Assembly (NCBI GenBank): GCA_029858565.1
Contig: JAOUEV010000024.1
Span: 1-48,024 of the forward strand
Direction of reading: 5' to 3'
Origin: Nitrospirota bacterium
GTDB lineage: Bacteria; Nitrospirota; UBA9217
Length of the DNA: 48,024 nt
Positions 1,640 through 40,815 of this stretch are shown piece after piece; positions within the stretch are counted from its first letter, which is position 1, and the number at the start of each line of letters is the position of its first letter. The translations under genes and the position numbers were made by a program. The notes under the pieces were generated by a model. That model searched no databases. It had not been told where the DNA came from and saw only the letters and a list, made by a program, of their open reading frames with translations.

Positions 1640-1717
1640 TTTCACCGCAGAGGACGCGGAGGAAAGCAAGGCATGAAGAATGAATTCTCCGCGCCCTCTG
1701 CGTCTTCGGCGGTGAAA
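1640..1717. repeat. Inverted tandem-repeat element, 9-mer type (GCAGAGGAC)
   Basis: TTTCACCGCAGAGGACGCGGAGG...CTCCGCGCCCTCTGCGTCTTCGGCGGTGAAA. Confidence 0.85.
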
Positions 1718-1740
1718 TCTTTCAGCAGGTTGCTGAAATT

Positions 1741-2685
1741 ATGAATATTCTCATTTGCGGCATGGGAGCGCTCGGGACCGTGTTCGGGGTGCTCCTGAAA
1801 GATGCGGGTCACTCTGTATTCGGCCTTGCCAAAGACCGGCAATTGTCCGCCTTGCAGGGGAAGAAGCTCGCGGTGACGGGCATCTGGGGCGGGCACGAGG
1901 CAGTGCTGGACCAGGTCGAAAGCTCGATCGAGCCGCTTCGCAGCGTCAATTTTGACCTTGTCGTGCTCACGGTGAAATCCTACGACACGGCCGAGGCAAT
2001 CGCCGAACTGAAGCCGCTCGTGGGCAGGAATACGCTGGTCATGGTTGCGCAGAACGGCTATGGCAACTACGAGACCGTTGCGCGAGCGGTCGGCAAGGAA
2101 CATGCGCTGCTGGCACGCGTTATCTTCGGCGTGAAGCTCCTTGCCTTGGCGAGCGCGGAGGTGACGGTGATCGCCGACGCGGTGCGCATCGGTCAGCCGG
2201 ACAATGCTGTTCCTGAAGCACAGGTGCGGGAGGTCGCCGCCGTGATCAACAGCGCGGGCATCCCTGCGGAATATGCCGCGAACATAACCGCGATCCTGTG
2301 GGACAAGATCCTCTACAACGCGGCATTGAACCCGCTGGGAGCTCTGCTCGAATGTACGTATGGTCAGCTTGCCGAAAACCAGGATAGCAGGCTGCTGATG
2401 GACCGGGTCATCGACGAGATCTTTCTGGTCGCCGGCGCGCAGGGGATCAGCCTCAACTGGCGTTCAGCCGAGGACTATCGCGTCCATTTTTACGGGAGGC
2501 TCGTTCCGCCGACGGCTGTGCACTATCCATCCATGTATCATGACATGAAAGCGGGGAAACGCCTCGAGATCGACGCGTTGAACGGAGCAATCGTCCGGCT
2601 TGCCCGGGAGCAGGGCGTCTCTGTACCGGCGAACGAGGTGATCGTGCGTTTGATCCGTGCGAAGGAGGCGCTGCACCGGATATGA
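1741..2685 (+). CDS. panE: 2-dehydropantoate 2-reductase
   Basis: GMGALG Rossmann motif, VKSYD, QNGYG, WDK..YNAALNPL, SMYHD, EIDALNG. Confidence 0.9.
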   Translation: MNILICGMGALGTVFGVLLKDAGHSVFGLAKDRQLSALQGKKLAVTGIWGGHEAVLDQVESSIEPLRSVNFDLVVLTVKSYDTAEAIAELKPLVGRNTLVMVAQNGYGNYETVARAVGKEHALLARVIFGVKLLALASAEVTVIADAVRIGQPDNAVPEAQVREVAAVINSAGIPAEYAANITAILWDKILYNAALNPLGALLECTYGQLAENQDSRLLMDRVIDEIFLVAGAQGISLNWRSAEDYRVHFYGRLVPPTAVHYPSMYHDMKAGKRLEIDALNGAIVRLAREQGVSVPANEVIVRLIRAKEALHRI

Positions 2686-2713
2686 TCAATGGAACGCCTC
2701 CCGATCTTTCCGC

Positions 2714-2742
2714 TTGACATCACCCCGAAGTTTCACTACAAT
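2714..2742 (+). promoter_or_regulatory. Sigma70-type promoter
   Basis: TTGACA-17-TACAAT. Confidence 0.7.
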
Positions 2743-2748
2743 CGCCCC

Positions 2749-3074
2749 ATCCTTTCCGAAGTTGCAAGACCTGCAGTACCCCCTGAACGTAAGAACGTGG
2801 TCAACTTGTTCGCCAGCGGTTTTTGCTGAACGATCGGTGTCCGATCCGCTGGTGATCATCAGCGCGAACGCACGGCCGTGCGTGCGACCCGCTGCCTTGA
2901 TCGATGCGCGGAGAACGAGCGTATCCTGCATGCCCGCATCCTCTGGCGTCGGGTGTTCACGGGGAACTGCCGCGGTCGGGAGCGCAGGGAGATCCTGCGG
3001 ACCGGCAGCGCGAAGCACAGGCTCAGGAACGCTACGTTCTGCGGTTAACCTTTTATCGGATCAAAGGAGGTCAC
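2749..3074 (+). ncRNA. Candidate structured 5' leader or ncRNA
   Basis: About 325 nt between promoter and ATG with several stems and two long-range pairings; no family recognised. Confidence 0.3.
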
Positions 3075-9754: not shown

Positions 9755-9836
9755 CGGTAGCCGGTAGCCTGTTGCCGGTAGCCTGGAAATAAAAAGCGGT
9801 TGGTTTCCCGGCTACTGGACCCTGGCTACAGGACCC
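9755..9836. repeat. Inverted tandem-repeat element, 7-mer type (CGGTAGC)
   Basis: CGGTAGC CGGTAGC CTGTTGC CGGTAGC...CCGGCTA CTGGACC CTGGCTA CAGGACC between hisH and hisA. Confidence 0.75.
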
Positions 9837-10461: not shown

Positions 10462-10542
10462 TTTTGACACTGATGACACTGACAAATCCTGTGAACAGGT
10501 CGGTCTTTTCATAGTGTTCTTCAGTGTCCTCAGTGTCGAAAA
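10462..10542. repeat. Inverted tandem-repeat element, 9-mer type (GACACTGAK)
   Basis: GACACTGATGACACTGA...TCAGTGTCCTCAGTGTC between hisB and hisH. Confidence 0.85.
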
Positions 10543-11136: not shown

Positions 11137-11158
11137 AGAACCCCCAAAAAATCAAGAG

Positions 11159-11230
11159 CAGGATTATTATGAACAAGGATTAATAGGATTAAGGATCAGA
11201 GGTCGTAATCCTGCTAATCCTCTAATCCGG
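11159..11230. repeat. Inverted tandem-repeat element, GGATTA type
   Basis: GGATTA x3-4 facing TAATCC x3 between hisC and hisB. Confidence 0.75.
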
Positions 11231-11240
11231 GGCTGCTGTA

Positions 11241-12314
11241 TTAATCCTTGCTTAAGATGCTTCTCAGGTTCTTCAGGAATTCTCTGTTCTGCGCCGGTGT
11301 TCCGATGGTCACCCGCAGGCAGCCTTTGAGCGGGCCCGGGCGGTCGAGGTTCTTCACCAGGATGCCGCGCTTCTTGAGCGCCTGAAAGACCTTGGTTGCG
11401 TCCTTCTCGATCCAGATCAGCAGAAAGTTCGTTTCCGAAGGAAAGGGGGTGACCCCCGGAGTCCTGAGAAGGGCCTGGTACAGCTTCGTGCGCTCTGCAA
11501 CAAGGACCGCGATCTGCTGGTCCAGCACCTTGCGCTGCCTGAGCGCTGCGAGCCCGGCTGCCTGGGAAAGCGCATTGATGTTGTAGGGCAGCCTGACCTT
11601 GTTCAACTCGTCAACAACGGCCGGTGCTGCCGTGAGAACGCCGATCCTGAGCCCCGCGAGGCCGATCTTGGACAGCGTGCGCAGGACGATCATGTTCGGA
11701 TGCTTGGAGAGCTGCGGGAGCCACGATCTGCCAGAAAAACTGTAGTAGGCCTCGTCGATCACCACGGCCGCGTTCACGTTGAGCAGGACCTTGCGGACCG
11801 CATCGTCGGAATAGCGGTTGCCGGTCGGGTTGTTCGGGCTGGCGAGAAAGACCACTCGTGCACCGGTCTGGCGCGCTTTTTTAATGACCGCGTCCGCGTC
11901 AAGATCGAACTCCCCGGTCAGCGGCACGGTCACGACATCCTGGGACAGCGCCCGCGCAGTGATCTCATACATTGCAAAGGTCGGCGACGGGGCAAGCACC
12001 GGCCCGCCAAAGGCGAGAATGATCGCCTGGATCAGTTCGTCGGACCCGTTGCCCAGGAGCATCCGGTCCGGCCGAATGTTCCACATCGCGCCGATCGCAG
12101 ACTTCAGCTTCTTTGCCGTCGGATCGGGATAGAGGTTCAGCGGTGCAGAGGAAAGCGAGGCTGCCAGCTCCCGCCGGGCCGCGGAGGGAAGCGGGTAGGG
12201 GTTCTCCATCGCATCGAGCTTGATGCGCACCGGGGTCTCGTCGACATGGTAGGCTTTGAGCGCCCGTACCGCGGGTTTGACGAGCCCGACGACGGCTGAT
12301 GATGATCTCTTCAT
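11241..12314 (-). CDS. hisC: Histidinol-phosphate aminotransferase
   Basis: LDAMENP, GNGSDELI, SPNNPTG, DEAY, RTLSK..LAGLRIG. Confidence 0.95.
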   Translation of the reverse strand: MKRSSSAVVGLVKPAVRALKAYHVDETPVRIKLDAMENPYPLPSAARRELAASLSSAPLNLYPDPTAKKLKSAIGAMWNIRPDRMLLGNGSDELIQAIILAFGGPVLAPSPTFAMYEITARALSQDVVTVPLTGEFDLDADAVIKKARQTGARVVFLASPNNPTGNRYSDDAVRKVLLNVNAAVVIDEAYYSFSGRSWLPQLSKHPNMIVLRTLSKIGLAGLRIGVLTAAPAVVDELNKVRLPYNINALSQAAGLAALRQRKVLDQQIAVLVAERTKLYQALLRTPGVTPFPSETNFLLIWIEKDATKVFQALKKRGILVKNLDRPGPLKGCLRVTIGTPAQNREFLKNLRSILSKD

Positions 12315-12390
12315 GGAACGATAATATACCGGAAAGGAAGGGGGGGTACAAGGGGAAAAAGGTCGCCTGCCGCAGGTATCGCCTGTGAAT

Positions 12391-12426
12391 AAAAAAGGCA
12401 GGTTCCCCGGGGGAACCTGCCTTTTT
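12391..12426 (-). terminator. Intrinsic terminator of csp gene
   Basis: AAAAAAGGCAGGTTCCCC-G-GGGGAACCTGCCTTTTT. Confidence 0.85.
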
Positions 12427-12444
12427 GCGAGGTCGTCTTGGTTA

Positions 12445-19366: not shown

Positions 19367-19379
19367 CGCGGGGTTTTTT
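19356..19379 (+). terminator. Terminator-like hairpin overlapping DUF1385 stop
   Basis: AACCCCGCTGACGCGGGGTTTTTT. Confidence 0.6.
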
Positions 19380-19398
19380 GTTGGAACATCATTATGGG

Positions 19399-19426
19399 GA
19401 GGGCGGGTTGTAAACCCGCCTCTGCA
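19399..19426 (-). repeat. Single REP-like palindrome
   Basis: Minus strand TGCAGAGGCGGGTTTACAACCCGCCCT, resembling GTAG-type REPs. Confidence 0.55.
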
Positions 19427-19437
19427 CTTTATCGGCT

Positions 19438-20514: not shown

Positions 20515-20518
20515 TCAA

Positions 20519-20589
20519 ATTGCGGATTTCGGATTGCGGATTGCAGATTGAACTGAAAAATCCGAAATCTACAATCCGCAATCCGCAAT
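20519..20589. repeat. Inverted tandem-repeat element, 7-mer ATTGCGG type
   Basis: ATTGCGG ATTTCGG ATTGCGG ATTGCAG...AATCCGA AATCTAC AATCCGC AATCCGC AAT. Confidence 0.9.
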
Positions 20590-20594
20590 CGAAC

Positions 20595-21479
20595 GTGACC
20601 ATATCTGAGATCATAGCAACGGCGGCTGCCCGGCTGGCGGCGCACAAGATCGAGAACAGCCGGCTTGATGCCGAAGTGCTTCTCGGTCATGTCCTGAACC
20701 GGGACCGTGCGTGGCTTATCGCCCACTACCCGGACCAGATCAGCGACAGCGAGATGCAGTACTACGAACACCTGGTCGAACGCAGGGCGGTCCGCGAACC
20801 GCTTCAATACATCACCGCGAAGCAGGAGTTTTGGGGCCTGGACTTCCTGGTTACTCCCGATGTCCTGATCCCCCGGCCCGAGACGGAACTGGTGGTGGAA
20901 AACGCGCGTTCCCTTTTGCGGGATGCGCTGCGGCCGGTGGTCATCGATCTTTGCACCGGATCGGGCTGTATCGCCATCTGCCTGGCCCGTGAGCTGACCA
21001 CTGCCCGGATCTTTGCGACCGACCGTTCGGCTGAAGCGCTGACCGTGGCACGGACCAATGCCAACCATCATGGCGTTGAGCAGCGGATACGGTTCATCGA
21101 AGGAGACCTGTTCGGCCCCTTGAACGTGGCGGATATGGACGGCTCAGTCAGCGTCATTACGGCGAATCCGCCTTACGTGCCGATCGGCGATATGGCGGGT
21201 CTCCAGCCGGAGGTGCGGGACTTCGAACCGGAGCTGGCGCTCCTGGCCGGACCCGAGGGTACCGAGGTTGCGGGAAGGATCATTTCCGAGGCTCCGCGGT
21301 ATCTGCGCTCAGGCGGCAGCCTTGTCATGGAATTCGGCATGGGACAGGCCGGGGTGCTGCGGGGGATGGCGGACAGAACTGGTGCTTACTCGACAATCGA
21401 TGTTCTTAAGGATCTGGCAGGGATCGATCGGGTCCTTGTCGCGGCAAAGAAGCAAAATTTTGATACGGATGCACGCTGA
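20595..21479 (+). CDS. prmC: Release factor glutamine methyltransferase (alternative in-frame start 20511)
   Basis: EPLQYI, VLIPRPETE, DLCTGSGCIA, NPPY, KDLAG.DR. Confidence 0.95.
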   Translation: MTISEIIATAAARLAAHKIENSRLDAEVLLGHVLNRDRAWLIAHYPDQISDSEMQYYEHLVERRAVREPLQYITAKQEFWGLDFLVTPDVLIPRPETELVVENARSLLRDALRPVVIDLCTGSGCIAICLARELTTARIFATDRSAEALTVARTNANHHGVEQRIRFIEGDLFGPLNVADMDGSVSVITANPPYVPIGDMAGLQPEVRDFEPELALLAGPEGTEVAGRIISEAPRYLRSGGSLVMEFGMGQAGVLRGMADRTGAYSTIDVLKDLAGIDRVLVAAKKQNFDTDAR

Positions 21480-21552
21480 TGGACACGGATGGAGGCATAT
21501 CAAGGATCCAGGATGTTGATGCATCCGTGCGCATCGGTGTATATCCGCGGCC
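21462..21552. repeat. Inverted tandem-repeat element, 10-mer type (ACGGATGSAC)
   Basis: ACGGATGCAC GCTGATGGAC ACGGATG...CATCCGTGCG CATCGGTGTA TATCCGCGG; contains the prmC stop. Confidence 0.85.
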
Positions 21553-21567
21553 GACAGGTTTGAAGTT

Positions 21568-22815: not shown

Positions 22816-22818
22816 AGC

Positions 22819-22869
22819 AATTGCGGATTGCGGAATGCGGATTAAAATCCGCAATCCGAAATCCGAAAT
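22819..22869. repeat. Inverted tandem-repeat element, 7-mer ATTGCGG type
   Basis: ATTGCGGATTGCGGAATGCGGATT-AA-AATCCGCAATCCGAAATCCGAAAT. Confidence 0.9.
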
Positions 22870-22881
22870 GGGAAGGGTTTT

Positions 22882-24174: not shown

Positions 24175-24179
24175 TCTGC

Positions 24180-24283
24180 AACCACAGATGAACACGGGTA
24201 CGGCGTTGCCGTACACACCGATAATCCTTACGACCGTGTTAATCCGTGGTTATAATTGACTTCATCTGTGTTAATCTGTGGTT
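24180..24283. repeat. Inverted tandem-repeat element, 10-mer type, with duplicated right arm
   Basis: AACCACAGATGAACACGG...ACCGTGTTAATCCGTGGTT...ATCTGTGTTAATCTGTGGTT. Confidence 0.8.
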
Positions 24284-24298
24284 CCTGGGGAGTGTAAA

Positions 24299-25222: not shown

Positions 25223-25228
25223 ATGCGA

Positions 25229-25255
25229 AGGGCGGCCTTATGGCCGCCCTTTTTT
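25229..25255 (+). terminator. Intrinsic terminator
   Basis: AGGGCGGCCTTATGGCCGCCCTTTTTT. Confidence 0.85.
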
Positions 25256-25331
25256 GTGAGGCGAGAAGAACGTATTCTGTTCAAGAAGCGAGGAATTGCA
25301 CAATGAGGAATTGAGACCTCGTGCCTGTCCG

Positions 25332-25976: not shown

Positions 25977-25995
25977 GGCCTGCCTCCGTTCTCCT

Positions 25996-28353: not shown

Positions 28354-28362
28354 AAAAATCTA

Positions 28363-28445
28363 TTTAGACACTGAGGACACTGAAAAAATAGGAAAAAGCA
28401 ATAAGCAGAGTTACCAACGATTCTTCAGTGTCCTCCGTGTCAAAA
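28363..28445. repeat. Inverted tandem-repeat element, 9-mer type (sister of 10462-10542)
   Basis: GACACTGAGGACACTGA...TCAGTGTCCTCCGTGTC. Confidence 0.85.
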
Positions 28446-28457
28446 AACTGTTTTGCA

Positions 28458-29387: not shown

Positions 29388-29402
29388 GAAAACCTCAAAT
29401 GC

Positions 29403-29476
29403 ACTGCGGAATGCGGAAAGCGGAATGCGGAGTGAGAGGCGAAGGATCACAACTTCGCACTCGCCACTCCGCACTT
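29403..29476. repeat. Inverted tandem-repeat element, 7-mer AATGCGG type
   Basis: ACTGCGG AATGCGG AAAGCGG AATGCGG AGTG...TTCGCAC TCGCCAC TCCGCAC. Confidence 0.8.
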
Positions 29477-29479
29477 AAC

Positions 29480-30670
29480 TCATTTCCGGTCCTTCCACGA
29501 CGGCACGGGATACACATAGGGCTTGCTGGCATGGGACTTGGGCCAAATGGTCTCGAACTCGCCCTTCTGCACCTGGATGGCAAGGGTCTCGTGGAAGTTC
29601 TGGTTCTGGTAGCCTTCCTTGTCCTCGAACTTCACCGGTCCATAGGCGGTCTTCAGGTTCGTGGCCTTCAGCGCGTCGCGGATGGCATCTGCTGTCCAGT
29701 CCTTGGCGCGGTTCAGTGCGTCCGCAGCCACATACAGAGCGGCATAGGCAGAGGCGCCGTGGTAGGAGGGATAGTCGCCGTGCTTTGCTTTATACTTGTC
29801 AGCGAATTCCCTGGCGCCGGGATACTTGAGCTGCGGGGTCCACAGCGTGGCGCTGACCACATATTCCGCCGCGTCCTGGGCGCCCTTGATGAACTCGGGT
29901 ATGGCAAATCCGGCGGCGCCGCCGGCATAGAGCTTCATATCGATCCGCAGTTCTTTTGCCTGCTTCATGATCAGCTGCGCTTCGTTGGCATAGGCAACGG
30001 TATAGACGACGTCAGGCTGGGCCGCCTTGACCTTGGACAGCAGGGGCTTGAAATCGATCGCGCCGGTCTCGAACTTCTCCTTGACCACGACCTTCGCGCC
30101 CATGGGGGCGGCGTCCTTTTCCATGGCGTCTGCGCCCGAGGTGCCGAAGGCCGAGCTCTCGTAGAGGATGGCAATGGTCTTGGGCTTGACGACCTCCTTC
30201 AGGAAGGATACGACCGCGTCGCCATAGTGGGCGTTCACCTGGTTCTGGCGGAACACATATTTGTAGTTCTTCTGGGTGATGTCGTCATCGGCGCTTGCCA
30301 CGACCAGGTAGGGGGTCTTGCGTTCCTCGGCAATAGCGGCTACCGCTTTGGCGCAGGACGAGGTGTATTCACCGACAATGATCGGCTGCTTCTTCGTATC
30401 GATCAGCTTTTCCACGATCGAACGCGCGATCTCGGGTTTGCCTGTCGAGTCTTCAAAGGACAGGGCGATCTTCCTGCCCTTGACCCCGCCCTTGGCATTG
30501 ATCTCCTCAGCAGCGATCTCGTAGGAGCGTTTCATGATCTCACCGAACTTAGCCGGTTTTCCGGTAAGCGGCAGCGGGATAACCAGATCGAACGCGTCCG
30601 CCGCAAGAACGGGTGCCGCGAACAGACCGAACAGGAACAGCAGGGAGACAGCAACGGCGAGATGTTTCAT
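29480..30670 (-). CDS. livK: Branched-chain amino acid ABC substrate-binding protein
   Basis: Signal peptide, PLTG, EINAKGGV.GR, periplasmic binding protein type 1 pattern. Confidence 0.88.
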   Translation of the reverse strand: MKHLAVAVSLLFLFGLFAAPVLAADAFDLVIPLPLTGKPAKFGEIMKRSYEIAAEEINAKGGVKGRKIALSFEDSTGKPEIARSIVEKLIDTKKQPIIVGEYTSSCAKAVAAIAEERKTPYLVVASADDDITQKNYKYVFRQNQVNAHYGDAVVSFLKEVVKPKTIAILYESSAFGTSGADAMEKDAAPMGAKVVVKEKFETGAIDFKPLLSKVKAAQPDVVYTVAYANEAQLIMKQAKELRIDMKLYAGGAAGFAIPEFIKGAQDAAEYVVSATLWTPQLKYPGAREFADKYKAKHGDYPSYHGASAYAALYVAADALNRAKDWTADAIRDALKATNLKTAYGPVKFEDKEGYQNQNFHETLAIQVQKGEFETIWPKSHASKPYVYPVPSWKDRK

Positions 30671-30783
30671 GGGAGGCCTCCTTCAGGCAAGCGGGATTGA
30701 GCAATAGGGATAGTTTATGGATTGATTAGAATCATTAATAGCACAAGGAGGGGGTTATTTCAACGTCAATTTTCAGTTTTACA

Positions 30784-31524
30784 TCATGTGGACCGTGTTT
30801 TCAGGAATTCCCGGTTCAGTTTTGCGATGAACCGGACCCTGATGCCTTTGGGACAGGCGGATTCGCACTCATAGTGATTGCCGCAGTTCCCGAATCCCTG
30901 GCGGAGCATTTCCTCGGTCATCATGCAGACCCGCCTTCCCGCCTCGATCTTCCCCTGGGGAAGGCTGGCAAGGTGGGTCACCTTGGCGGCAGTGAAGAGC
31001 ATGGCCGAGCCGTTCGGGCACGCGGCAACGCAGGCGCCGCAGCCGATGCATTCAGCAGCGTCCATGGCCGTATCGGCATCACTTTTGGGGATGAGGATCG
31101 CGTTGCCGTCAGCAACGCCGCCGGTATGGACCGAGATATAGCCTCCGGACTGGATGATCCTGTCCAGGCTCCCGCGGTCGATAACCAGGTCCTTGACCAC
31201 CGGAAAGGCCAGGGCGCGAAAAGGCTCGATATAGATGGTGTCGCCATCCTGGTAGTTCCGCATATGGAGCTGACAGGTGGTGGTGAGCTTGCGCGGACCA
31301 TGGGGTGTTCCGTTCACTGCCTGGCCGCAGGCGCCGCAGATGCCCTCGCGGCAGTCGCTGTCAAAAGCGATGGGTTCCTCGCCCCGCCTGATCAGGTCCT
31401 CGTTCACCACATCGAGCATCTCGAGAAAGGACATGTCAGGCGAGATGTCCCGTGCCTCGTACTGGACGAGCCTGCCTTTTTCCTTCGGTCCTGCCTGGCG
31501 CCAGACATACAGCGTAAGGTTCAT
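30784..31524 (-). CDS. sdhB: Succinate dehydrogenase/fumarate reductase Fe-S subunit
   Basis: [32 protein letters not shown]. Confidence 0.95.
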
Positions 31525-31564
31525 TTCTTTCCCTCGGTTATACGTGGGGCTATTCGATGGATAC

Positions 31565-31633
31565 AGGGCTAAAGGATGGCGGCTTAAGAAGAGCCGATTT
31601 CTAATCCCTTAATCCTGATAGTCCTCTTAACCC
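31565..31633. repeat. Degenerate GGATTA/TAATCC inverted tandem element
   Basis: TAATCCCT TAATCCTGA TAGTCCTCT TAACCCT with a degenerate left arm, between sdhA and sdhB. Confidence 0.55.
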
Positions 31634-33547
31634 TTACTTATAGTTTCTCACCGCCAGCTCCACGTTCTCGAACGTCAGCGGTTCCTTATGCAGCGCAGGT
31701 TCTTTGCCTTCACCCTGATATTCCCACGCCGCGATATGGGCGAAGTTCGCGTCGTCCCGCTTGGCCTCATGGTCCGGCGTCTGGTGCTCGATGCGAAAGT
31801 GGCCGCCGCAGGATTCCTCGCGGAGAAGCGCGTCGCGGGTCATGAGCTCGCTGAACTCCAGGAAGTCGGCGACCCTGCCGGCCTTCTCGAGCTGCTGGTT
31901 AAGCTGCTCTCCGGTGCCGGGAACCTTCACGTTCTCCCAGAATTCTGCGCGCAGCTCAGGGATGCGCTTGAGCGCGCTGGTGAGGCTCTCCTTGCTTCTC
32001 GCCATGCCGACGTTCTCCCACATGAGCCTGCCGAGCTCGCGATGGAAATCACTTGCCGTCCTCTTCCCTTTGACCTGAAGCAGTTTTTCCGTGTATGCCG
32101 CGGCAGCCTCGCGGGATTGCCGGAATTCCTGGTGGTCGGCCCGTACCGCACCGGGAGCGACCCGGGCCAGATAATCCGCCAGGGTGTAGGGGATAATGAA
32201 GTAGCCGTCTGCCAGCCCCTGCATCAGGGCGCTCGCGCCCAGCCGGTTAGCGCCGTGATCTGAGAAATTCGCTTCTCCGAGCGCGAACAAGCCGGGGACC
32301 GTGCTCATGAGGTTGTAGTCCACCCACAGTCCGCCCATGGAGTAGTGCGGCGCGGGATAGATGCGCATGGGACGCCGGTAGGCGTTCTCATCGGTGATCC
32401 GCTCGTACATCTCAAAGAGATTGCCGTAGCGTTCCCGGATCGTGCTCTCTCCCAGCCGTTCGATGGCGTTCCGGAAATCGAGATACACGCCCCGTCTGCC
32501 GGGCCCGACCCCGCGGCCTTCGTCGCAGACCTCCTTGGCTGCGCGCGACGCGATGTCGCGGGGAGCCAGGTTCCCGTATGCGGGATATTTCCGCTCGAGA
32601 TAGTAGTCGCGGTCACTTTCCGGGATGCTGCCCGGCTCCCGCTTGTCGTCCCGGTCCTTCGGCACCCATACCCTGCCGTCGTTCCTGAGGGATTCCGACA
32701 TGAGCGTGAGCTTGGACTGGTGGTCCCCGGTCACGGGGATGCAGGTGGGGTGGATCTGGGTGAAGCAGGGATTGGCGAAAAAAGCCCCCTTCTTGAACGC
32801 ACGGAACGCGGCGGTCACGTTCGAGCCGATCGCGTTCGTGGAGAGATAGAATACATTGGTGTAGCCGCCGGTGGCCAGGCAGACGGCGTCACCGGCAAAG
32901 GACGCAACCTTGCCGGTCACCAGGTCACGGACCGTGATCCCCCTCGCGTGGCCGTCAACGACCACGAGGTCGAGCATCTCGGTCCGGGGGTGGAGGAGGA
33001 CGGAACCGAGCCGGACCTGCCGCATGAGGCTGCCGTAGGCGCCGAGCAGAAGTTGCTGTCCTGTCTGACCCCGGGCATAGAAGGTTCGCGAGACCTGGGC
33101 GCCGCCAAAGGACCGGTTGTCCAGGTAACCAGCGTAGTCGCGGGCAAAGGGCACACCCTGGGCCACTGCCTGGTCGATGATGTTCGCGCTCACCTGCGCA
33201 AGGCGGTAGACGTTCGCCTCGCGGGACCGGAAATCGCCGCCCTTGATCGTGTCCTGGAACAGGCGCCAGATGCTGTCCCCGTCGTTCGGGTAGTTCTTTG
33301 CCGCGTTGATGCCGCCCTGGGCAGCGATGCTGTGGCCGCGGCGCGGCGAGTCCTGGAAGCAGAAAGCGTCTACAGTGTAGCCGAGTTCTCCGAGCGTGGC
33401 CGCGGCGGAAGCCCCGGCAAGGCCGGTGCCGACCACGATCACGCGGTACTTGCGCTTGTTCGCGGGAGCAACAAGCTTCAGCTCCTGCTTTCTGCGGTCC
33501 CATTTTTCCTGAAGGGGGCCGGAAGGTATTTTAGGATCGAGTGTCAT
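31634..33547 (-). CDS. sdhA: Succinate dehydrogenase/fumarate reductase flavoprotein
   Basis: [49 protein letters not shown]. Confidence 0.96.
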
Positions 33548-33581
33548 AGATTCTATCTCATACAAGTCAAAAGCAACTGCG

Positions 33582-33679
33582 TCTCGCGCAAAGACGCAAA
33601 GACGCAAAGGAAAGCCTTAAATTAGAAAACGGGTAAATGTTATTTGCCTTTCTTTGCGGCTTAGCGTCTTTGCGCGAGA
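33582..33679. repeat. Inverted tandem-repeat element, 8-mer CGCAAAGA type
   Basis: TCTCGCGCAAAGACGCAAAGACGCAAAG...CTTTGCGGCTTAGCGTCTTTGCGCGAGA. Confidence 0.9.
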
Positions 33680-33693
33680 TAGTAGTTCTCTTT

Positions 33694-34359
33694 TCACTTC
33701 AGCAATCCCATAACGATCGCCGCCGGTATCGCCGCATAGGCCAGCAGCAGGATGAGCGCTGCAAGCCGGCTTCCTTTTTTAATATAAGGAAAGCTTTTTT
33801 CCCCGTTCAAGCCCCAGGTCTGGAAAGAGCTCTGGATCCCATGGGACAAATGCAGCCAGACCGCGAGCAGTCCCGCCGCATAGACCAAGAGGATGCCGAT
33901 CCTGCGGAAGGCTGCAAAGACCATGGCGAAGACGTCCGGCCTGCCCGCGGCATCGGGATGGGTGACCGCAGCTGTTGACGGATCGATGGTCTGAAAGGTG
34001 AAGTGAAGAAGGTGATAGATAAGGAACGAGCCGATCGCAGTTCCGGTCCAGATCATGTTCCTGCTGCTGAACGTCGACGCGGCATATTCCTGGACAGCAT
34101 AGGTCCGCGGCTTGGCCTCACGGTTCTCGATGGTCACCTGGATGCCGTAGAAAACGTGGAGCATGATGGCGGCGAGCATCACTGACCGGAATATCCAGAG
34201 CAGGAGGGGAAGCGCGTGGAGCCCTGCAGCGTAAGCGTTCAGGGTCCGGTAAAAGATTGTCGAGTTGCCCAGAACGTGCAGGATGATGAAGATGATCATC
34301 AGCTGGCCTGTGGCGGCCATCAGGAGCTTTCTGGCGACAGTGGATGCAGGGAGGGACAT
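33694..34359 (-). CDS. sdhC: Succinate dehydrogenase cytochrome b subunit (5 TM)
   Basis: RK..MA.TG, H..GN, HLLHF, HLSHG..S.FQT.G. Confidence 0.92.
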   Translation of the reverse strand: MSLPASTVARKLLMAATGQLMIIFIILHVLGNSTIFYRTLNAYAAGLHALPLLLWIFRSVMLAAIMLHVFYGIQVTIENREAKPRTYAVQEYAASTFSSRNMIWTGTAIGSFLIYHLLHFTFQTIDPSTAAVTHPDAAGRPDVFAMVFAAFRRIGILLVYAAGLLAVWLHLSHGIQSSFQTWGLNGEKSFPYIKKGSRLAALILLLAYAAIPAAIVMGLLK

Positions 34360-34394
34360 TCTTCAACCTCGGATCATATTCAAAGCGCATCTAT

Positions 34395-34492
34395 TTTACC
34401 ACGGAGGCACAGAGGACACGGAGATAATACCTCGATTATTCGGCAGACGCCAGGTTCTTGTCCGCGTCTCCCTGTCACCGCGTCACCGTGTC
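34395..34492. repeat. Tandem-repeat element with non-matching arms (9-mer left, 8-mer right)
   Basis: ACCACGGAGGCACAGAGGACACGGAG...TCCGCGTC TCCCTGTC ACCGCGTC ACCGTGTC. Confidence 0.75.
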
Positions 34493-34495
34493 AGT

Positions 34496-35881
34496 TTATT
34501 GCTGCCCCGCGCCGCTCCCGGTCAGCTTCCCGGGATCGAGCAGCCGGTCCAGCTCTTCCCGTGAAAGGTCCGTCATCTCGGCCGCCACATCCCTGATCGG
34601 CCGGCCTTCCTTATATGCTTGCTTCGCGATCTCGGCTGCCCGGTCATAGCCGATCACGCTGTTCAGCGCCGTGACCAGGATGGGATTGCGGTCGAGCGAT
34701 GCCGCTATGCGGTCCCTGTTCACGGTGAACCCCGCGATCGCCTTGTCCGCAAAGAGCCGGCTCGCGTTCCCGAGCAGGGTGATGGACTGGAGCAGGTCGT
34801 GGGCGACCAGGGGCATCATGACGTTCAGTTCGAAGTTGCCGTGGGAGTTGCTGATCGCGATCGCCGCGTCATTCCCGATCACCCGGGCCGACACCATCAT
34901 CATCATCTCGCACATGACCGGGTTCACCTTGCCGGGCATGATGCTCGATCCCGGCTGGAGCGGCGGAAGGCTGATCTCTCCCAATCCCGCGAGCGGGCCG
35001 CTGTTCATCCACCGGAGGTCGTTCGCCATCTTGATGAACGATGTTGCCGCGGTCCTCAGCTGGCCCGAGAGCTCCGCTGCCGTGTCCAGGGTCGCCTGGG
35101 CCGCGAAGTGGTCCTGAGCCTCACGAAAAGGGATGCCGGTCCGCTTTTCCAGACGGGCAGCGATCTTCCGTCCGAAGCCCGCCGGGGCATTGATGCCGGT
35201 TCCGACCGCCGTACCCCCGATCGCCAGCCGGGCCAGCCGCGGCAGACAGGACTCGATGCGTTCGATCGATTGATGGACCTGGAACGCCCACCCGCCGATC
35301 TCCTGCGCCATCGTGACCGGCATGGCATCCATGAGATGGGTCCGGCCGGTCTTGACGATGTCGCCGAGCTCGGCTTCCCGTTTGCGCAGGGTCGATTCAA
35401 GGTGAGCGAGGGAAGGCAGAAGCAATTCCTTGAGCTGCAGGTAGGCGCTCACATGGATCGCCGCGGGGATCACGTCGTTCGACGACTGGCCGCTGTTCAC
35501 ATGGTTGTTCGGATGGGCCGCGGGTTCTCCCAGAGCCCGCGCACGAGAAGCGATGACCTCGTTGGCGTTCATGTTCGTGGAGGTTCCGGAGCCGGTCTGG
35601 AAGATATCGAGCGGAAAGTGGCTGTCCCATTTCCCTTCGGCGACCTCGAGCGCGGCCTCGCGAACGGCCCTTGCCGGTCCCGCGTCGATCAGGCCCAGCT
35701 CTCCGTTCTCTTCGGCAGCCGCGGCCTTGATCAGCCCCAGAGCACGGATAAAGACCCGGGGAAAGCCGATGCCGCTCACCGGGAAGTTCTCGACCGCCCG
35801 CTGGGTCTGGGCGCCGTAGAGCGCATCAACAGGGACTTTTATCTCGCCGAGGGAATCTTTTTCTATTCTATAGTCGGTCAT
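34496..35881 (-). CDS. fumC: Class II fumarate hydratase
   Basis: QTGSGTSTNMNANEV, GRTHLMDA, PGSSIMPGKVNP. Confidence 0.96.
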   Translation of the reverse strand: MTDYRIEKDSLGEIKVPVDALYGAQTQRAVENFPVSGIGFPRVFIRALGLIKAAAAEENGELGLIDAGPARAVREAALEVAEGKWDSHFPLDIFQTGSGTSTNMNANEVIASRARALGEPAAHPNNHVNSGQSSNDVIPAAIHVSAYLQLKELLLPSLAHLESTLRKREAELGDIVKTGRTHLMDAMPVTMAQEIGGWAFQVHQSIERIESCLPRLARLAIGGTAVGTGINAPAGFGRKIAARLEKRTGIPFREAQDHFAAQATLDTAAELSGQLRTAATSFIKMANDLRWMNSGPLAGLGEISLPPLQPGSSIMPGKVNPVMCEMMMMVSARVIGNDAAIAISNSHGNFELNVMMPLVAHDLLQSITLLGNASRLFADKAIAGFTVNRDRIAASLDRNPILVTALNSVIGYDRAAEIAKQAYKEGRPIRDVAAEMTDLSREELDRLLDPGKLTGSGAGQQ

Positions 35882-35885
35882 AGGG

Positions 35886-36001
35886 CAGTCGTAAGTCAGT
35901 CGTGAAACAGTCAAGAAGCAGTCGAGATGCAGTCTGGAACGTCATGAAACAGTCGTAAATCAGTCAAGATGCAGTCGTGAAGTTGTCATAGGTTGTCGAG
36001 A
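35886..36001 (+). repeat. Tandem array of about 11 copies of an 11-mer CAGTC-N6
   Basis: CAGTCGTAAGT CAGTCGTGAAA CAGTCAAGAAG CAGTCGAGATG...; inverted partial copy at 36221-36238. Confidence 0.9.
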
Positions 36002-36013
36002 GGCCGCCTATAA

Positions 36014-36214
36014 TCAGTCGGCATTCAAGTACTTCATGAAACCATTTATCAATTTCCCGGTTTCTAGAGCTGCATCATATGCTCCCTGGAATTCCTTCTT
36101 GGCAATATATCCGAGATCCAAAGCAACATAAAGCTGGCTCTGAACTTCGGCGGTGGAACCGAGAGAAATACCGAGGAAACGTTTGAATTCCTTATCGCCC
36201 GTTCGCGCAAATCC
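36014..36214 (-). pseudogene. 5'-truncated four-helix-bundle (23S rRNA IVP-like) protein gene
   Basis: Manual translation GFARTGDKEFKRFLGISLGSTAEVQSQLYVALDLGYI...LINGFMKYLNAD*; lacks the N-terminal half and a start codon; lower GC. Confidence 0.85.
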
Positions 36215-36235
36215 TGCTGTAAGACTGCTTTTCGA

Positions 36236-37654
36236 CTATCTCTCCGCCAATCCCGTCTTCCTCGCCGCCTCCGATACCGCGTGCGCTACCGCATGGACGA
36301 CCCGTTTCTCAAAGGGGCTCGGGACGATGTAGTCCTCGTGAAGTTCTTCGGTCTTTACCATATGGGCGATGGCGTTTGCGGCGGCGAGTTTCACTTCCTC
36401 GTTCACGCCTTTCGCGTGCACGTCCAGCAGGCCGCGGAAGATGCCGGGATAGGCGAGCATATTGTTGATCTGGTTCGGGAAGTCGGACCTGCCTGTTGCC
36501 ATGATCTTCACAAGCGGCAGCGCCACGTCGGGAGAGATCTCCGGGTCCGGATTCGCAAGCGCGAAGACAATGGGGTCCTTTGCCATGCCTTTAATGTCCT
36601 TGGCTGTGATCACGTTCGGCGCGGACACGCCGATGAACACGTTCGCGCCGGCCATGGCGTCGGAGATCGTGCCTTTGATCCTGCGGGGGTTCGTGATCTT
36701 CGCGAGCGCCGAGAGGTGAGGATTCATGTGCGTGCGTCTGCCGGCGTAGACCGTGCCCTGGCTGTCGCAGACCGTGATGTCCCTGATGCCGTAGGCCAGC
36801 AGGATCTTGGCGATCGCGGTGCCTGCGGCGCCCGCGCCGACCATGGCCACCCTGAACTTCCTGATGTCCTTCCTGAGCAGCCGGCCCACATTGATCAGCG
36901 CGGAAAGGGCCACGACCGCGGTGCCGTGCTGGTCGTCGTGGATCACCGGCATGGCCAGGGCCTTTCGGAGACGCATCTCGATATCAAAGCAGCGCGGAGC
37001 GGAGATGTCCTCGAGATTCATGCCGCCGAAGGGTGTGGCGATGTTCTTGACGGTCTCCACGATCTCGTCGGGGTCCTTGGTCCGGAGCGCGATGGGGAAG
37101 GCGTCGATATCCGCGAACTCCTTGAAGATCATGGCCTTGCCTTCCATCACCGGCATGGCAGCATCCGGTCCGATGTCACCGAGGCCGAGCACCGCGGTGC
37201 CGTCGGTGATGATGGCCACGGTGTTCTTCTTGATCGTATAGCGGTAGACGTGTTCGGGATGGTGAAAGATATCCATGCAGACCCGGGCGACCCCGGGAGT
37301 ATAGACCTGGGACAGGTCGCTCCGGTCGCGGATCTGCATTTTGCTCCGGATCTCGATCTTGCCGCCCTCGTGGGACGAGAAGGTGCGGTCCATGGTCTTC
37401 AGCACCCGTACGCCGCCCACGGCCCTGATCGAGGCGGCGATCTCTTTTTCATGCTCCGCGTCACGCGCGTCCACGGTCACGTCGCGGATGATCTTGCCCC
37501 GTTCCGCGCGCACGATGTCCACAGCGCCAAGATTGCCGCCCGCGATGCTGATGGCGGTCGCGATCTGGGCGAACTTGCCGATCACATTGTCGATCTCCAG
37601 GCGCATCTGGATGCTGTAGCTGGGGCTGGTGGAGCAGGTATAAGGTGCCTTCAT
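36236..37654 (-). CDS. NAD(P)-dependent malic enzyme with N-terminal ACT domain
   Basis: YTPGVA, DGTAVLGLGDIG, EGKA..FK, NLEDI.AP.CF, HDDQHGTA, ATGRSD.PNQ.NN; SD AAGGAG before 37654. Confidence 0.93.
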   Translation of the reverse strand: MKAPYTCSTSPSYSIQMRLEIDNVIGKFAQIATAISIAGGNLGAVDIVRAERGKIIRDVTVDARDAEHEKEIAASIRAVGGVRVLKTMDRTFSSHEGGKIEIRSKMQIRDRSDLSQVYTPGVARVCMDIFHHPEHVYRYTIKKNTVAIITDGTAVLGLGDIGPDAAMPVMEGKAMIFKEFADIDAFPIALRTKDPDEIVETVKNIATPFGGMNLEDISAPRCFDIEMRLRKALAMPVIHDDQHGTAVVALSALINVGRLLRKDIRKFRVAMVGAGAAGTAIAKILLAYGIRDITVCDSQGTVYAGRRTHMNPHLSALAKITNPRRIKGTISDAMAGANVFIGVSAPNVITAKDIKGMAKDPIVFALANPDPEISPDVALPLVKIMATGRSDFPNQINNMLAYPGIFRGLLDVHAKGVNEEVKLAAANAIAHMVKTEELHEDYIVPSPFEKRVVHAVAHAVSEAARKTGLAER

Positions 37655-37838
37655 GGCATCCGCTCCTTCAATCAAGAGGAAATCTGCCGGATAAACAACG
37701 TTAACAGGGATGCAGGGCTTTGTCAAGACACTCCGGCGGGCCCTCCCGGCGGACAGTCTCCTTGATTTCCCGCCTGATATATAGTAGCCTTGAATCAGGT
37801 CCGCGGGACAACCTATTCCAGGGACAGGTGCGGGAACC

Positions 37839-39110: not shown

Positions 39111-39237
39111 TAAGGGCCATCGCGCTGCAACGCGCCGGTCATTGTATCCTTTGTAGTAGAGACGGTCAATTCTTCCGGTAATTGTCACCTCTTCAGATAA
39201 TTCTGCAGCAAAACTTCCATTCTGTGTCACCAATGAT

Positions 39238-39279
39238 ACATAGGAGTTCATTTTGCTTAAGCAAAATGAACTCCTATGT
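39238..39279. repeat. Perfect 42-bp spacerless palindrome
   Basis: ACATAGGAGTTCATTTTGCTT|AAGCAAAATGAACTCCTATGT, 21/21 pairs checked by hand. Confidence 0.95.
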
Positions 39280-39520
39280 TCTAATGCGCAAAACAGATCA
39301 TTTGGCAGCTCAAACATGGCCGGAGGCAACCTGCAGAAAAACAATGAGTTGTTTGTTGTGCTGATGAAAAGCACCTGGTGACGCATGCTCAATATTGCCG
39401 GGTATGGTTGTTGCAAATATATTTTTTCAGGAACCAATAAATCATGCTGCTCTGGAAGGAGTATAGGTGAAGTAATCAACCTAAGTGCGACAACAGGGAA
39501 GAAAGTGCAGGTGATGAGAT

Positions 39521-39964
39521 ATGGATAAGCGGCTGGAGAGGGAAATCGACCGGCAGGTCGAGAACTATCGGCGTGCGATGCTCTATCTTGCCAGAACGTG
39601 CGACTGGGACGAGTTCAAGACGCGGGCAGGAGGATTGTTCGATTATCTTGAGCAGGTGGAAGCGCTGGTACGGGAACGGAAATTCTTTCAGACATTTTTT
39701 ACCATTCTTGCATTTCTGGTCGTTGCCGCGCTGCTCATCACCGGCTGGGATCCCGGGGATGATCCCGCGTTGCAGCGATTTAAGCAGAATCTGTTGCTCA
39801 TGGCGCTCGCGGCGTCGAGCTTTGAGCTCTTCTTTTATATAAATTTCCGCAAATATGTCGAGATCCGGGCATCGCTGGTCAGCGCTCGTCGGGAGGCCTT
39901 CATCAGGAACATGCTGCAGGATTTCCGGAAGTACGCTGAACAGCAGATGATGAAGGCGGCGTGA
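39521..39964 (+). CDS. Hypothetical two-TM membrane protein
   Basis: ORF with SD AGGTG; two hydrophobic helices. Confidence 0.7.
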   Translation: MDKRLEREIDRQVENYRRAMLYLARTCDWDEFKTRAGGLFDYLEQVEALVRERKFFQTFFTILAFLVVAALLITGWDPGDDPALQRFKQNLLLMALAASSFELFFYINFRKYVEIRASLVSARREAFIRNMLQDFRKYAEQQMMKAA

Positions 39965-40221
39965 GTGAATCAATAATGCACGCCGCAAGGGTCGCGGAGC
40001 GCGGTCAAGGAAAACAGATGCTTGCTGCTTCTCCGGGAACGCTGTGCGCACTGCCGTAGAAAAGGTCCCGGTCTCCACTTTCCTGCGTTCAAACCATTAC
40101 ACCGCTACGACCGATCTTCTTTTCCCGCACGTGCCTCGATATCCCCTTTGCGATAGAAAACCTTGAACCTGCCGGCACGACTGTAGTATGCTCAGTAGCA
40201 CAGGGGGCAGGTAAGAGCAGA

Positions 40222-40710
40222 ATGACCAAAAGCAGAGCATTCTATTCCAAAGGTATTAAGTTCGCGTGCCAGGGCTGCGGCGCCTGCTGCGCTGCCCGGG
40301 AACATCACACCTACGTCTACCTTTCCTTTGGCGACCGCAAGCGGTTTGCCGCCCGTCTGAAGATCACCACCGCGGAGTTCACCAGGAAATATACCGAGGC
40401 GTCCGACGGCTTCGTGCACCTCAAGGACCCGGAAAAGGACTGCCCCTTTCTGAAGGACAATCGCTGCATCGCCCACGAGGCGCGGCCCTGGCAGTGCCGC
40501 ACCTGGCCTTTCTGGCCCGAGAACATGCACCCCAAGGTCTGGGAGAGGGATGTGGCAGCGTTCTGTCCGGGCATCGGCAAGGGCAGGCTCTATACAGCTG
40601 AAGAGATCGACGAGATCATGGAGCGCAGGATGGAAGTAAAGGGAGAGGGGGATCAGTCCGGAGCTGCTGCTGAGACCGATCTGAAGAAACGGGAGAAACC
40701 GACAAAATAA
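40222..40710 (+). CDS. YkgJ family cysteine-cluster protein
   Basis: FACQGCGACC, CPFL, C..HEARPWQCRTWPFW, CPGIG.G. Confidence 0.9.
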   Translation: MTKSRAFYSKGIKFACQGCGACCAAREHHTYVYLSFGDRKRFAARLKITTAEFTRKYTEASDGFVHLKDPEKDCPFLKDNRCIAHEARPWQCRTWPFWPENMHPKVWERDVAAFCPGIGKGRLYTAEEIDEIMERRMEVKGEGDQSGAAAETDLKKREKPTK

Positions 40711-40815
40711 GGATTAACGGATTACAGGATTAGAGGATTACAGTACCTCATGGTTTCTTAATCCTTCAATCCTCATAATCCCGCCTCTTATTTGCTAATC
40801 CTTCCTTTGAATCCT
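40711..40815. repeat. Inverted tandem-repeat element, 8-mer GGATTANN type
   Basis: GGATTAAC GGATTACA GGATTAGA GGATTACA...TAATCCTT CAATCCTC ATAATCC...TAATCC..GAATCCT; fills the whole ykgJ-aat gap. Confidence 0.85.

Follow-up and report, generated by a model that had tools for sequence, protein, structure and literature searches.

The stretch of DNA analysed here (the window; 48,024 nt) is contig C47 of the 3.92 Mb, 144-contig assembly of a Nitrospirota bacterium, and it holds, among other genes, prfA-prmC-murA-hisD-hisG, hisC-hisB-hisH-hisA and mae-fumC-sdhC-sdhA-sdhB, the spacers of which are occupied by hairpin-forming inverted arrays of tandem micro-repeats. Junctions were delimited using our own gene calls and genes were named using NCBIfam. 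In each array, tandem units are followed by a spacer and then by units in reverse complement, as in GCGGATT...AATCCGC, GACACTGAG...CTCAGTGTC, NCGCAAAG...CTTTGCGN and CCACGGAGG...CCTCCGTGG. The hairpins belong to a family found throughout the genome, whose full-size copies enclose one small gene encoding either a GxxExxY protein (PF13366, PD-(D/E)XK class) or a four-helix-bundle protein (PF05635) of the kind found in intervening sequences (IVSs) of 23S ribosomal RNA (rRNA) genes. RNA folding at each site was scored against 200 dinucleotide shuffles, and the folding energies and z-scores are included in the following list of features.

1640..1717, unnamed gene-panE spacer: cargo-less hairpin, 9-nt units CGCAGAGGA / CGCGGAGGA (-42.6 kcal/mol, z -6.13)
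9755..9835, hisH-hisA junction: cargo-less hairpin, 7-nt units GGTAGCC (-32.4 kcal/mol, z -2.78, a weaker case)
10462..10541, hisB-hisH junction: cargo-less hairpin, 9-nt units GACACTGAK (-33.6 kcal/mol, z -5.83)
11155..11255, hisC-hisB junction: cargo-less hairpin, GGATTAA-type units (-33.9 kcal/mol, z -5.76)
20519..20592, prfA-prmC junction: cargo-less hairpin, 7-nt units GCGGATT (-32.4 kcal/mol, z -5.47)
21467..21546, prmC-murA junction: cargo-less hairpin, units of about 10 nt, ACACGGATGG type (-37.7 kcal/mol, z -4.41)
22819..22870, murA-hisD junction: cargo-less hairpin, 7-nt units GCGGATT (-25.8 kcal/mol, z -5.55)
24178..24285, hisD-hisG junction: composite hairpin, CCACAGATGAACACGG-type units, with one left arm, two right arms and a small inner hairpin (-38.6 kcal/mol, z -4.07)
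28367..28441, within the branched-chain amino acid ATP-binding cassette (ABC) transporter operon: cargo-less hairpin, 9-nt units GACACTGAG (-32.8 kcal/mol, z -5.90)
29403..29475, within the ABC transporter operon: cargo-less hairpin, 7-nt units GCGGAAT / GCGGAGT (-32.8 kcal/mol, z -4.40)
31556..31626, sdhA-sdhB junction: degenerate hairpin, GGATTAAG-type units (-22.1 kcal/mol, z -2.39, a weak case)
33580..33681, sdhC-sdhA junction: cargo-less hairpin, 8-nt units NCGCAAAG, three per arm, a member of a family of about 31 copies (-47.7 kcal/mol, z -8.32)
34395..34480, fumC-sdhC junction: hairpin whose left arm is of CCACGGAGG type and whose right arm is degenerate (-30.8 kcal/mol, z -2.17, a weak case)
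35886..36020, arm on the fumC side of a decayed four-helix-bundle cassette: array of 11-nt units, CAGTCGTGAAA type, expanded to about 11 units (z +1.39)
36041..36226, minus strand: remnant (C-terminal part) of a four-helix-bundle '23S rRNA IVS protein' gene (PF05635, E 5.2e-13, model positions 45-106 of 106; hmmsearch E 2.2e-13)
36215..36240, mae-side arm of the same decayed cassette: two-unit stub, AGACTGCTTTTCGACT (14/16 bases complementary to 35920-35935)
40703..40809, upstream of aat: cargo-less hairpin, 8-nt units GGATTANN (-32.4 kcal/mol, z -5.60)

An initial annotation, made from the sequence without database searches, had listed 15 such elements in the window, and this observation was confirmed. 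Tandem units of the period given there were present at all 15 sites, as two to five head-to-tail copies of a 7-11 nt unit, and an inverted partner array lay within about 120 nt at 14 of them, the exception being the array at 35886, whose mostly lost partner is situated past the gene remnant. Eleven of the 15 sites folded far more stably than their shuffles (z -4.1 to -8.3), three folded more weakly (9755, 31565 and 34395, z -2.2 to -2.8) and the 35886 array does not fold alone (z +1.4) because its partner arm lies beyond the gene remnant. The placement of the elements between co-directional genes and the filling of three core operons, both of which the initial annotation had pointed out, held for every case: all 15 sites fall on co-directional junctions, of which the window has 38, and the occupied junctions number 4/4 in prfA-prmC-murA-hisD-hisG, 3/3 in hisC-hisB-hisH-hisA and 4/4 in mae-fumC-sdhC-sdhA-sdhB. 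Its four-helix-bundle gene remnant was likewise confirmed, by the PF05635 match on the minus strand. The 14 short copies of the window contain no open reading frame (ORF), and a scan of the window against Rfam matched no family.

For the genome as a whole, a strict detector was used, which called a site where a tandem unit of 6-12 nt had, no more than 120 nt away, an inverted match of 12 nt or longer. It returned 198 elements, compared with 14 and 11 in two simulated genomes (order-3 Markov model), and recovered nine of the 15 listed window sites; the extra matches of a relaxed detector in the window were only noise. Twenty-six of the 198 lie deep inside ORFs and are mostly expected false positives, only 10 of these 26 having the purine-rich arm first. 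The other 172 comprise 147 in co-directional spacers, 9 in convergent and 10 in divergent spacers, and 6 at contig ends. The density per kb of spacer is 0.34 for co-directional, 0.11 for convergent and 0.11 for divergent pairs (chi-square p 1e-5), a three-fold enrichment that agrees with the placement first proposed, and the occupied junctions amount to 147/2584 co-directional versus 9/278 convergent. Gene co-orientation is strong throughout the genome, 2584 of 3145 neighbouring pairs running in the same direction according to our own gene calls. The distance from the stop codon to the element is mostly below 50 nt, with about 17 nt in the middle of the list.

Each element is built of two arms of about 25-35 nt, each consisting of two to five tandem units of 7-11 nt, with the purine-rich version first and its complement second. 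This order was found in 170 of the 198 elements, covering almost all of the real ones, and it reflects a true polarity rather than a strand effect because a palindrome reads alike on both strands. The mean fold across the elements is about -40 kcal/mol, and the long terminal inverted-repeat stem (about 20-30 bp) expected of an IVS-like element is present. The units group into families, dozens of different unit sequences occurring in this one genome. In the family of about 31 copies to which the sdhC-sdhA hairpin belongs, arms of 25-30 nt are held in common (tCTCGCGCAAAG-CCGCAAAG-NCGCAAAG-RAA ... TTYCTTTGCG...GCGCGAGA) and the ends TCTCGCGC...GCGCGAGA are conserved. By inspection, the loops within a family vary from about 4 to 190 nt and are unrelated in sequence, common loops being confined to local or assembly duplicates, and at four places in the genome an element is nested in the loop of another. 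Several arrays of an AGTGCGG heptamer were also seen in and around an ORF that by eye resembles CbiD (G000:C76:9988-11616, G000 denoting this genome and other G numbers the genomes of relatives), where they are read through as SAECG-like peptide repeats.

The initial annotation had stated that four-helix-bundle and GxxExxY genes are often flanked by such arrays, and this was largely borne out. This genome has five PF05635 matches above the curated cut-off and seven PF13366 matches. All seven GxxExxY genes are enclosed by inverted tandem arrays whose units belong to the families that make up the short hairpins, with arm matches of 16/17, 23/23, 23/25, 20/21, 18/20, 25/28 and 24/24 bases. Three of the five four-helix-bundle genes have clear arms (25/31, 14/14 and 29/31), one has degenerate GGATTA arrays and the fifth is the remnant in the window (14/16). 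In the full-size copies a single gene of about 120-125 codons occupies the loop, all 10 evaluated cassettes are co-directional with their neighbours, and terminal inverted repeats of the same unit families are common to the gene-bearing copies and the short hairpins. GxxExxY arms are mostly of 8-9 nt units of CRCNRAG type and four-helix-bundle arms mostly of 7-nt units. The GxxExxY gene at G000:C100:32548-33277 has a complete hairpin on each side, the two being direct copies with a common loop sequence; this two-hairpin layout, also present at the loci L068 and L123, would be expected if a circle (gene plus hairpin) recombined with a resident hairpin by a single crossover.

The association extends well beyond this genome. 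A genome scan with a three-sequence protein alignment yielded 80 GxxExxY loci, biased to the L057/L058/L053 subfamily because of that alignment, in Planctomycetota, Verrucomicrobiota, Acidobacteriota, Bacteroidota, Cyanobacteriota (Nostoc), Chloroflexota, Pseudomonadota, Gemmatimonadota, one Rhabdochlamydiaceae genome and others. A flanking inverted match with a score of at least 13 across the gene was found at 56 of the 77 loci with enough flank, compared with 2 of 140 shifted controls. Nearly every arm consists of three 8-nt units, e.g., CTCACGCAAAG-GCGCAAAG-NCGCAAAG; 43 of the 56 armed loci are purine-first, and the other 13 are arranged as pyrimidine arm, gene and purine arm, or as hairpin, gene and hairpin. 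In a Bernardetia RefSeq record, an annotated 'GxxExxY protein' lies between two co-directional genes with CACAGAG arms on both sides. For the four-helix-bundle gene, 151 genomes of this phylum were covered, and inverted arms were found at 20 of 29 loci versus 0 of 54 controls. An rRNA scan of these 29 loci of relatives and of 11 cargo loci of this genome placed none of them in rRNA, and the 23S rRNA gene of this genome (3001 nt against a 2925-position model) has no large insert.

Alignment of orthologous junctions, which the initial annotation had put forward as a check, revealed filled, decayed, empty and element-free alleles. At mae-fumC, a full-length four-helix-bundle gene bordered by four to five units of the 11-nt type of the window is present in G012, a genome from a different genus, indicating that the window remnant is what is left of a cassette after decay; this junction holds other arrays in two genomes from the same genus as the window. 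At the junction after C115:26318-27715, a GxxExxY cassette is present in G000, the same arms with a decayed gene in G008 and one arm only in G012, while G001, G005 and G006 are element-free with abutting genes and G002, G003, G007 and G009 have hairpins of other families. The nuoF-like/nuoG-like junction holds an orthologous GxxExxY gene in G000, G001, G010 and G012 with differing arms, CCACGGAAGAGGCGGATA, GACACTGAGGACACTGA, GACACTGAAGGACACTGA and GACACAGAAGAGGCGGATA. The right arm carries matching changes in G000, G001 and G010, and in G012 its outer and inner parts pair while the middle is expanded, indicating that both arms change in concert. At murA-hisD, the GCGGATT-type unit family occupies the same junction in five relatives with three to four units per arm (counted by eye), and across murA-hisD and hisD-hisG in relatives GCGGATT, CACGGAG, TCAGGAG/TCAGAAG, ATTGAAA or CCACGGAT units, or no hairpin, are found. 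Among metagenome contigs with 78-89% HisD identity, a detectable element is present at 14/38 and 12/40 of such junctions.

The number of arms also follows the gene. In 28 sampled genomes of the family, octamer arms were counted using the two-unit pattern CRCNRAGNCRCNRAG and the reversed pattern as a control. The count tracks the PF13366 copy number with a Spearman coefficient of 0.91, the p-values of this correlation being overstated because related genomes are not independent samples. The 21 genomes with PF13366 have 30-436 arm hits (median 4.9x control), and the seven genomes without it, which also lack PF05635, have 3-26 (1.07x control). Both states of PF13366, present and absent, occur within the genera g11 and g29, and the arm contrasts there agree. 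Several genomes have a single GxxExxY gene and no spread of arms.

Both cargo proteins were examined. Invariant positions in 60 GxxExxY sequences are G28, G30, E33, Y36, D72, E82, K84, N113 and F114, and the AlphaFold model has a confidence (pLDDT) of 95.1. A sequence search of solved structures gave no match for this protein, and its nearest folds as assessed by Foldseek are Cas4 SSO0001, TT1808, lambda-exonuclease-like enzymes, MGME1 and Hjc, with moderate template modelling (TM) scores of 0.4-0.55. Judged by the conserved residues and the predicted model, the GxxExxY protein is probably an active, small PD-(D/E)XK nuclease of no assigned subfamily; PF13366 is entered as 'unknown' in a catalogue of this superfamily (PMC3424549, as excerpted). 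In the literature searched, which did not extend to subscription journals, the protein is named in just two papers, in passing each time. For the four-helix-bundle proteins, the match to PF05635 has E 1e-40, and two solved pentamers, 2rld and 2gsc, are matched as well.

Our best reading is that of a widespread, IVS-like foldback family in which the cargo gene is of one of two kinds and many copies are cargo-less; in this genome the family saturates the junctions of housekeeping operons. We lean towards regarding its members as foldback, hairpin-bounded selfish elements akin to the 23S rRNA IVS and lodged in the spacers of co-transcribed genes. The reading draws on the observed architecture, the association with cargo across phyla, the filled, decayed, empty and absent alleles, the concerted change of the arms, the nesting and the co-occurrence of arms and cargo. 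The approximately 170 short hairpins in the genome, 14 of them in the window, are cargo-less copies, a term that is preferable to the 'empty sites' of the initial annotation because no decayed cargo was found in their loops. The cassette idea itself was retained in part, in that the arms of full-size copies enclose small cargo genes; no event of insertion or removal was seen. We infer mobility from the element-free alleles, the nesting, the many copies with conserved arms, the occurrence of the arms with the gene across phyla and the co-occurrence of arms and cargo.

Spread may depend on the nuclease, the target of which would be the arms (in the form of a hairpin, cruciform or repeated binding site), and host recombination may copy or exchange the DNA between arms. 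In the operon transcript, the arms would form a long duplex and might be cut by ribonuclease III (RNase III), by analogy with the rRNA IVS relatives, and insertion between genes would for that reason be tolerated. The RNase III gene rnc is present in this genome and the arms would form duplexes of 25-35 bp. A bolder version, which we consider possible and somewhat doubtful, would make GxxExxY proteins the endonucleases of pan-bacterial minimal mobile cassettes, recognising the arms and seeding the copying of the DNA between them; the four-helix-bundle proteins would ride the same vehicle, the rRNA IVSs would be copies that landed in rRNA, and RNase III cutting would turn all of them into 'introns without ligation'. 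Such introns would be harmless between the genes of an operon, which would explain the saturation of every housekeeping-operon junction.

Several results weigh against the selfish-element reading or its bolder version. A search for cargo remnants in the loops of the 172 elements found none, using profiles that recover known cargo in control spacers, although this is weak evidence because the loops are short. The loops of identical-arm copies are non-homologous and without cargo remnant, so that recent copy-and-paste is not supported. No target-site duplication is visible in aligned family members, as the initial annotation had stated for the window, and the empty orthologous sites are too diverged for one to be recognised; no close-strain polymorphism was seen among metagenome relatives, the closest of which have 89% HisD identity. 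Exceptions were found outside the family: octamer arms are numerous in G051 (100% complete) and G097, which lack PF13366 and contain PF05635, and in G091 (78% complete), which contains neither gene. The rule linking unit length to cargo is only a tendency, some four-helix-bundle genes having CACAGAG-type octamer arms, and arm type tracks the GxxExxY protein tree only weakly (13 changes versus 15.3 in shuffles, the shuffle minimum being 13; of 60 rows, 18 without arms above threshold and 10 typed 'other' were left out). No homologue occurs in 50,697 phage records and only eight plasmid records hold one, and we know of no catalytic role for the four-helix-bundle cargo. The pairing of the arms in mRNA, which the initial annotation had suggested, also failed to gain support. 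In the short elements, the sense strand folds only slightly better (83 vs 64, p 0.11; 415 G-U pairs sense versus 362 antisense), and among the arm mismatches of cargo elements A-C outnumbers G-U in the sense strand (70 vs 45, p 0.025), so that selection on a sense RNA duplex is unsupported. The constraint on the arms could equally act at the level of DNA (a hairpin, a cruciform or a series of binding sites), because this sense-strand RNA signature is missing. The strongest argument for the arms as RNase III substrates is the analogy with the Coxiella IVS data described below, to which our own tests add nothing.

If instead the hairpins were host RNA structures under selection in operons, serving as processing sites or exonuclease barriers like E. 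coli REP sequences (repetitive extragenic palindromes), with the small genes as secondary squatters in harmless loops, then the three-fold density in co-directional spacers, the very stable stems, the concerted change of both arms and the occupation of the same junctions in relatives by different unit families, which looks like selection for a hairpin, would all be expected. However, such hairpins are missing altogether from seven related genomes, some of them complete, in which the genes at the same junctions lie directly next to each other, and the hairpins are therefore dispensable. The sequence of the arms is moreover conserved, beyond pairing, across phyla together with the nuclease gene, the wobble signature of a selected sense strand is absent, and elements nest in one another; we regard this explanation as rather unlikely. 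The lack of strand bias would also suit paired units that act as DNA binding sites for nucleoid proteins or global regulators such as integration host factor (IHF) or HU, as proposed for Geobacter metallireducens, where paired, opposite-strand tandem sites have a consensus complementary to units found here and in relatives (PMC2700814, in its available excerpt). That proposal is a conjecture in the excerpt of the article itself, and the dozens of unit sequences in one genome exceed what one or two nucleoid proteins would account for. The sites are situated inside operons and not at promoters, with only 10 of 166 in divergent spacers, and the association with cargo would be left unexplained, making a binding-site role improbable.

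By-products of replication slippage and palindrome correction (template switching), with no function, no mobility and a coincidental link to cargo, would account for the variation in unit number, both at the murA-hisD orthologues and between Coxiella strains (PMC4990558, as excerpted), for the window arm expanded to about 11 units and for the symmetry between strands, which fits a DNA-level process. They would not produce about 31 copies with the same 25-30 nt arm and the same ends, nor the same arms in distant phyla beside the same gene family and their absence from genomes without the genes; the flank controls, at only 2/140 and 0/54, argue in the same direction, and we consider this origin highly improbable. 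Least probable of all are transcription terminators of a U-tract-independent type. Strong stems just after stop codons are what such terminators would look like, but they would fill every junction of essential multi-gene operons, and only 9/278 convergent junctions are occupied. Intrinsic terminators were rejected, in agreement with the absence of U tails in the initial annotation: TTTT occurs within 12 nt downstream in only 13 of the 172 elements, and a scan of 19000-37000 with a terminator consensus was not enriched (10 sites versus 12.9 expected). Canonical hairpin and T-tract sites mark 68/226 convergent (30%), 124/1607 co-directional (7.7%) and 17/254 divergent junctions, a distribution opposite to that of the micro-repeat hairpins. 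A canonical bidirectional terminator at 12389-12427 of the window (A tract, GC stem GGCAGGTTCCCC/GGGGAACCTGCC, T tract) indicates that this genome uses ordinary terminators; it adjoins a small cold-shock-like ORF on the minus strand that was missed by the gene caller.

The closest known counterparts of the elements are the rRNA IVSs of Coxiella, Leptospira and Xanthomonas. The Coxiella 23S rRNA IVS carries an ORF of the same four-helix-bundle family and a 28-bp terminal stem cut by RNase III; its arm consists of three tandem GACAGAT heptamers, the number of which varies between strains, and the cut lies at the start of the first repeat (PMC4990558). As described in the available part of that article, rRNA IVSs resemble the present elements in the hairpin with a terminal stem of about 28 bp, the strain-variable tandem heptamers, the single small PF05635 ORF in the loop, prone to decay, and the sporadic distribution. 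Here, the PF05635 loop ORF is restricted to full-size copies. The elements also differ in lying between protein-coding genes rather than in 23S helix 25 or 45, in being mostly cargo-less and in the common occurrence of a second cargo, the nuclease. The four-helix-bundle ORF also occurs in rRNA insertions of candidate phyla radiation (CPR) bacteria (PMC11270868, as excerpted), and a survey of CRISPR systems reported 18 four-helix-bundle genes wedged in cas loci, e.g., between cmr3 and cmr2 (PMC3936711, as excerpted).

A second counterpart is the 'putative global regulator binding sites' of Geobacter metallireducens, classes 1-3, which occur in tens of copies and consist of three to five tandem 7-8 nt units, paired on opposite strands with a variable distance between them, with consensus units TCTCCGTS, MTYCTGA and GTTGCTYN (class 1), binding of IHF or HU being a guess. 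The number and length of the units, the opposite-strand pairing and the variable distance recur in the elements described here. TCTCCGTS is the complement of our CACGGAGA units and MTYCTGA that of the TCAGGAG/TCAGAAG units in relatives, and the arms of Geobacter GxxExxY loci consist of GTTGCGNC units, which differ from the class 1 consensus by one letter. In contrast to the present analysis, PMC2700814, as far as its excerpt extends, regards these as sites bound by proteins and does not connect them with hairpins, cargo or IVSs. The description of the system as undescribed, in the initial annotation, should accordingly be narrowed: the Geobacter paired sites and the Coxiella heptamer stem are in print, and we found no paper linking the hairpins, both cargo families and the IVS (again with subscription journals outside the search). 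A literature search by unit strings found no paper either, and none of the papers listed in searches by the names of the two protein families reports this architecture. Curated family descriptions, we presume, may mention flanking repeats.

Other mobile or repetitive sequences share some of these features. Like REP sequences and their REPIN doublets, which are mobilised by REP-associated tyrosine transposases (RAYTs), the elements are abundant extragenic hairpin palindromes inside and at the ends of operons. Unlike them, they comprise dozens of families with tandem sub-repeats, whereas the REPs of one genome are one sequence and accompany a REP-flanked RAYT gene. A RAYT link was rejected, as none of 12 PF01797 genes is flanked by elements and only 1/12 has an element within 1.5 kb. 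These Y1-transposase-like genes (12 loci in G000, about 300 codons, e.g., C88:30641-31591 and C72:1699-2556) are flanked by short tandem repeats of their own (e.g., tatgcgcttatatgcgcttatatgcgc), unrelated to the hairpin arms. The FB (foldback) elements of Drosophila have variable loops between inverted arms that are composed of tandem sub-repeats, and genes are present in some of them. With such foldback transposons and with miniature inverted-repeat transposable elements (MITEs), the present family has in common the sub-repeat inverted arms, the variable loops, the many short and few gene-bearing copies with the same arms, the nesting and the presence or absence at orthologous sites. It differs from them in that no target duplication was seen, different copies have unrelated loops and the candidate enzyme, a PD-(D/E)XK nuclease of 125 residues, is no known transposase. 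Integron cassettes, with their attC sites, likewise consist of small promoter-less genes with imperfect hairpin bounds of conserved shape and variable sequence, expressed by read-through, and the hairpin-gene-hairpin layout of some loci here is similar. However, our elements are scattered one by one among the spacers of operons and do not form stacks next to an integrase gene and attI (no integrase search was made), and their arms are tandem micro-repeats and not R/L boxes. I-Ssp6803I is a small PD-(D/E)XK homing endonuclease, and the GxxExxY protein resembles such enzymes and Hjc resolvases in size, fold class, the invariant D...ExK and the location of its gene within a structured, dispensable insert; unlike the homing endonucleases, it has no intron or intein context, and its fold match is moderate and its activity predicted.

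GxxExxY and four-helix-bundle IVS proteins are very common 'hypothetical' families, nearly absent from the searched literature, which now have a common and testable context. The same context links the puzzle of the origin of rRNA IVSs, the multicopy 'regulator sites' of Geobacter and the four-helix-bundle genes inside cas operons (the last as excerpted in PMC3936711). Should the nuclease drive mobility, the cassettes would be a new minimal mobile element with a PD-(D/E)XK enzyme; should the arms be RNase III sites, hundreds of operon junctions would be processing sites, with consequences for operon annotation and expression models. The arrays can also mislead predictors of terminators, CRISPRs and gene starts. 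In the window, the longest-ORF starts of prmC, a livH-like gene, sdhA and fumC cross hairpins (20511-20600, 29398-29474, 33607 and 35914, respectively), and over-extended gene starts are likely in the automatic annotation of such genomes.

Two further observations were made. Arrays of GCGGATT and GCGGAGT type flank transfer RNA (tRNA) genes at G000:C14:127945-128700, where a second copy of a 3' part of one tRNA, about 200 nt downstream, resembles an attachment-site scar; four-helix-bundle cassettes of relatives also adjoin tRNA genes (L197, L207 and L215). In the window, a perfect 42-nt palindrome without micro-repeats (ACATAGGAGTTCATTTTGC TTAA GCAAAATGAACTCCTATGT) is located at 39238-39279, within the 410-nt spacer after the glutamate dehydrogenase gene.

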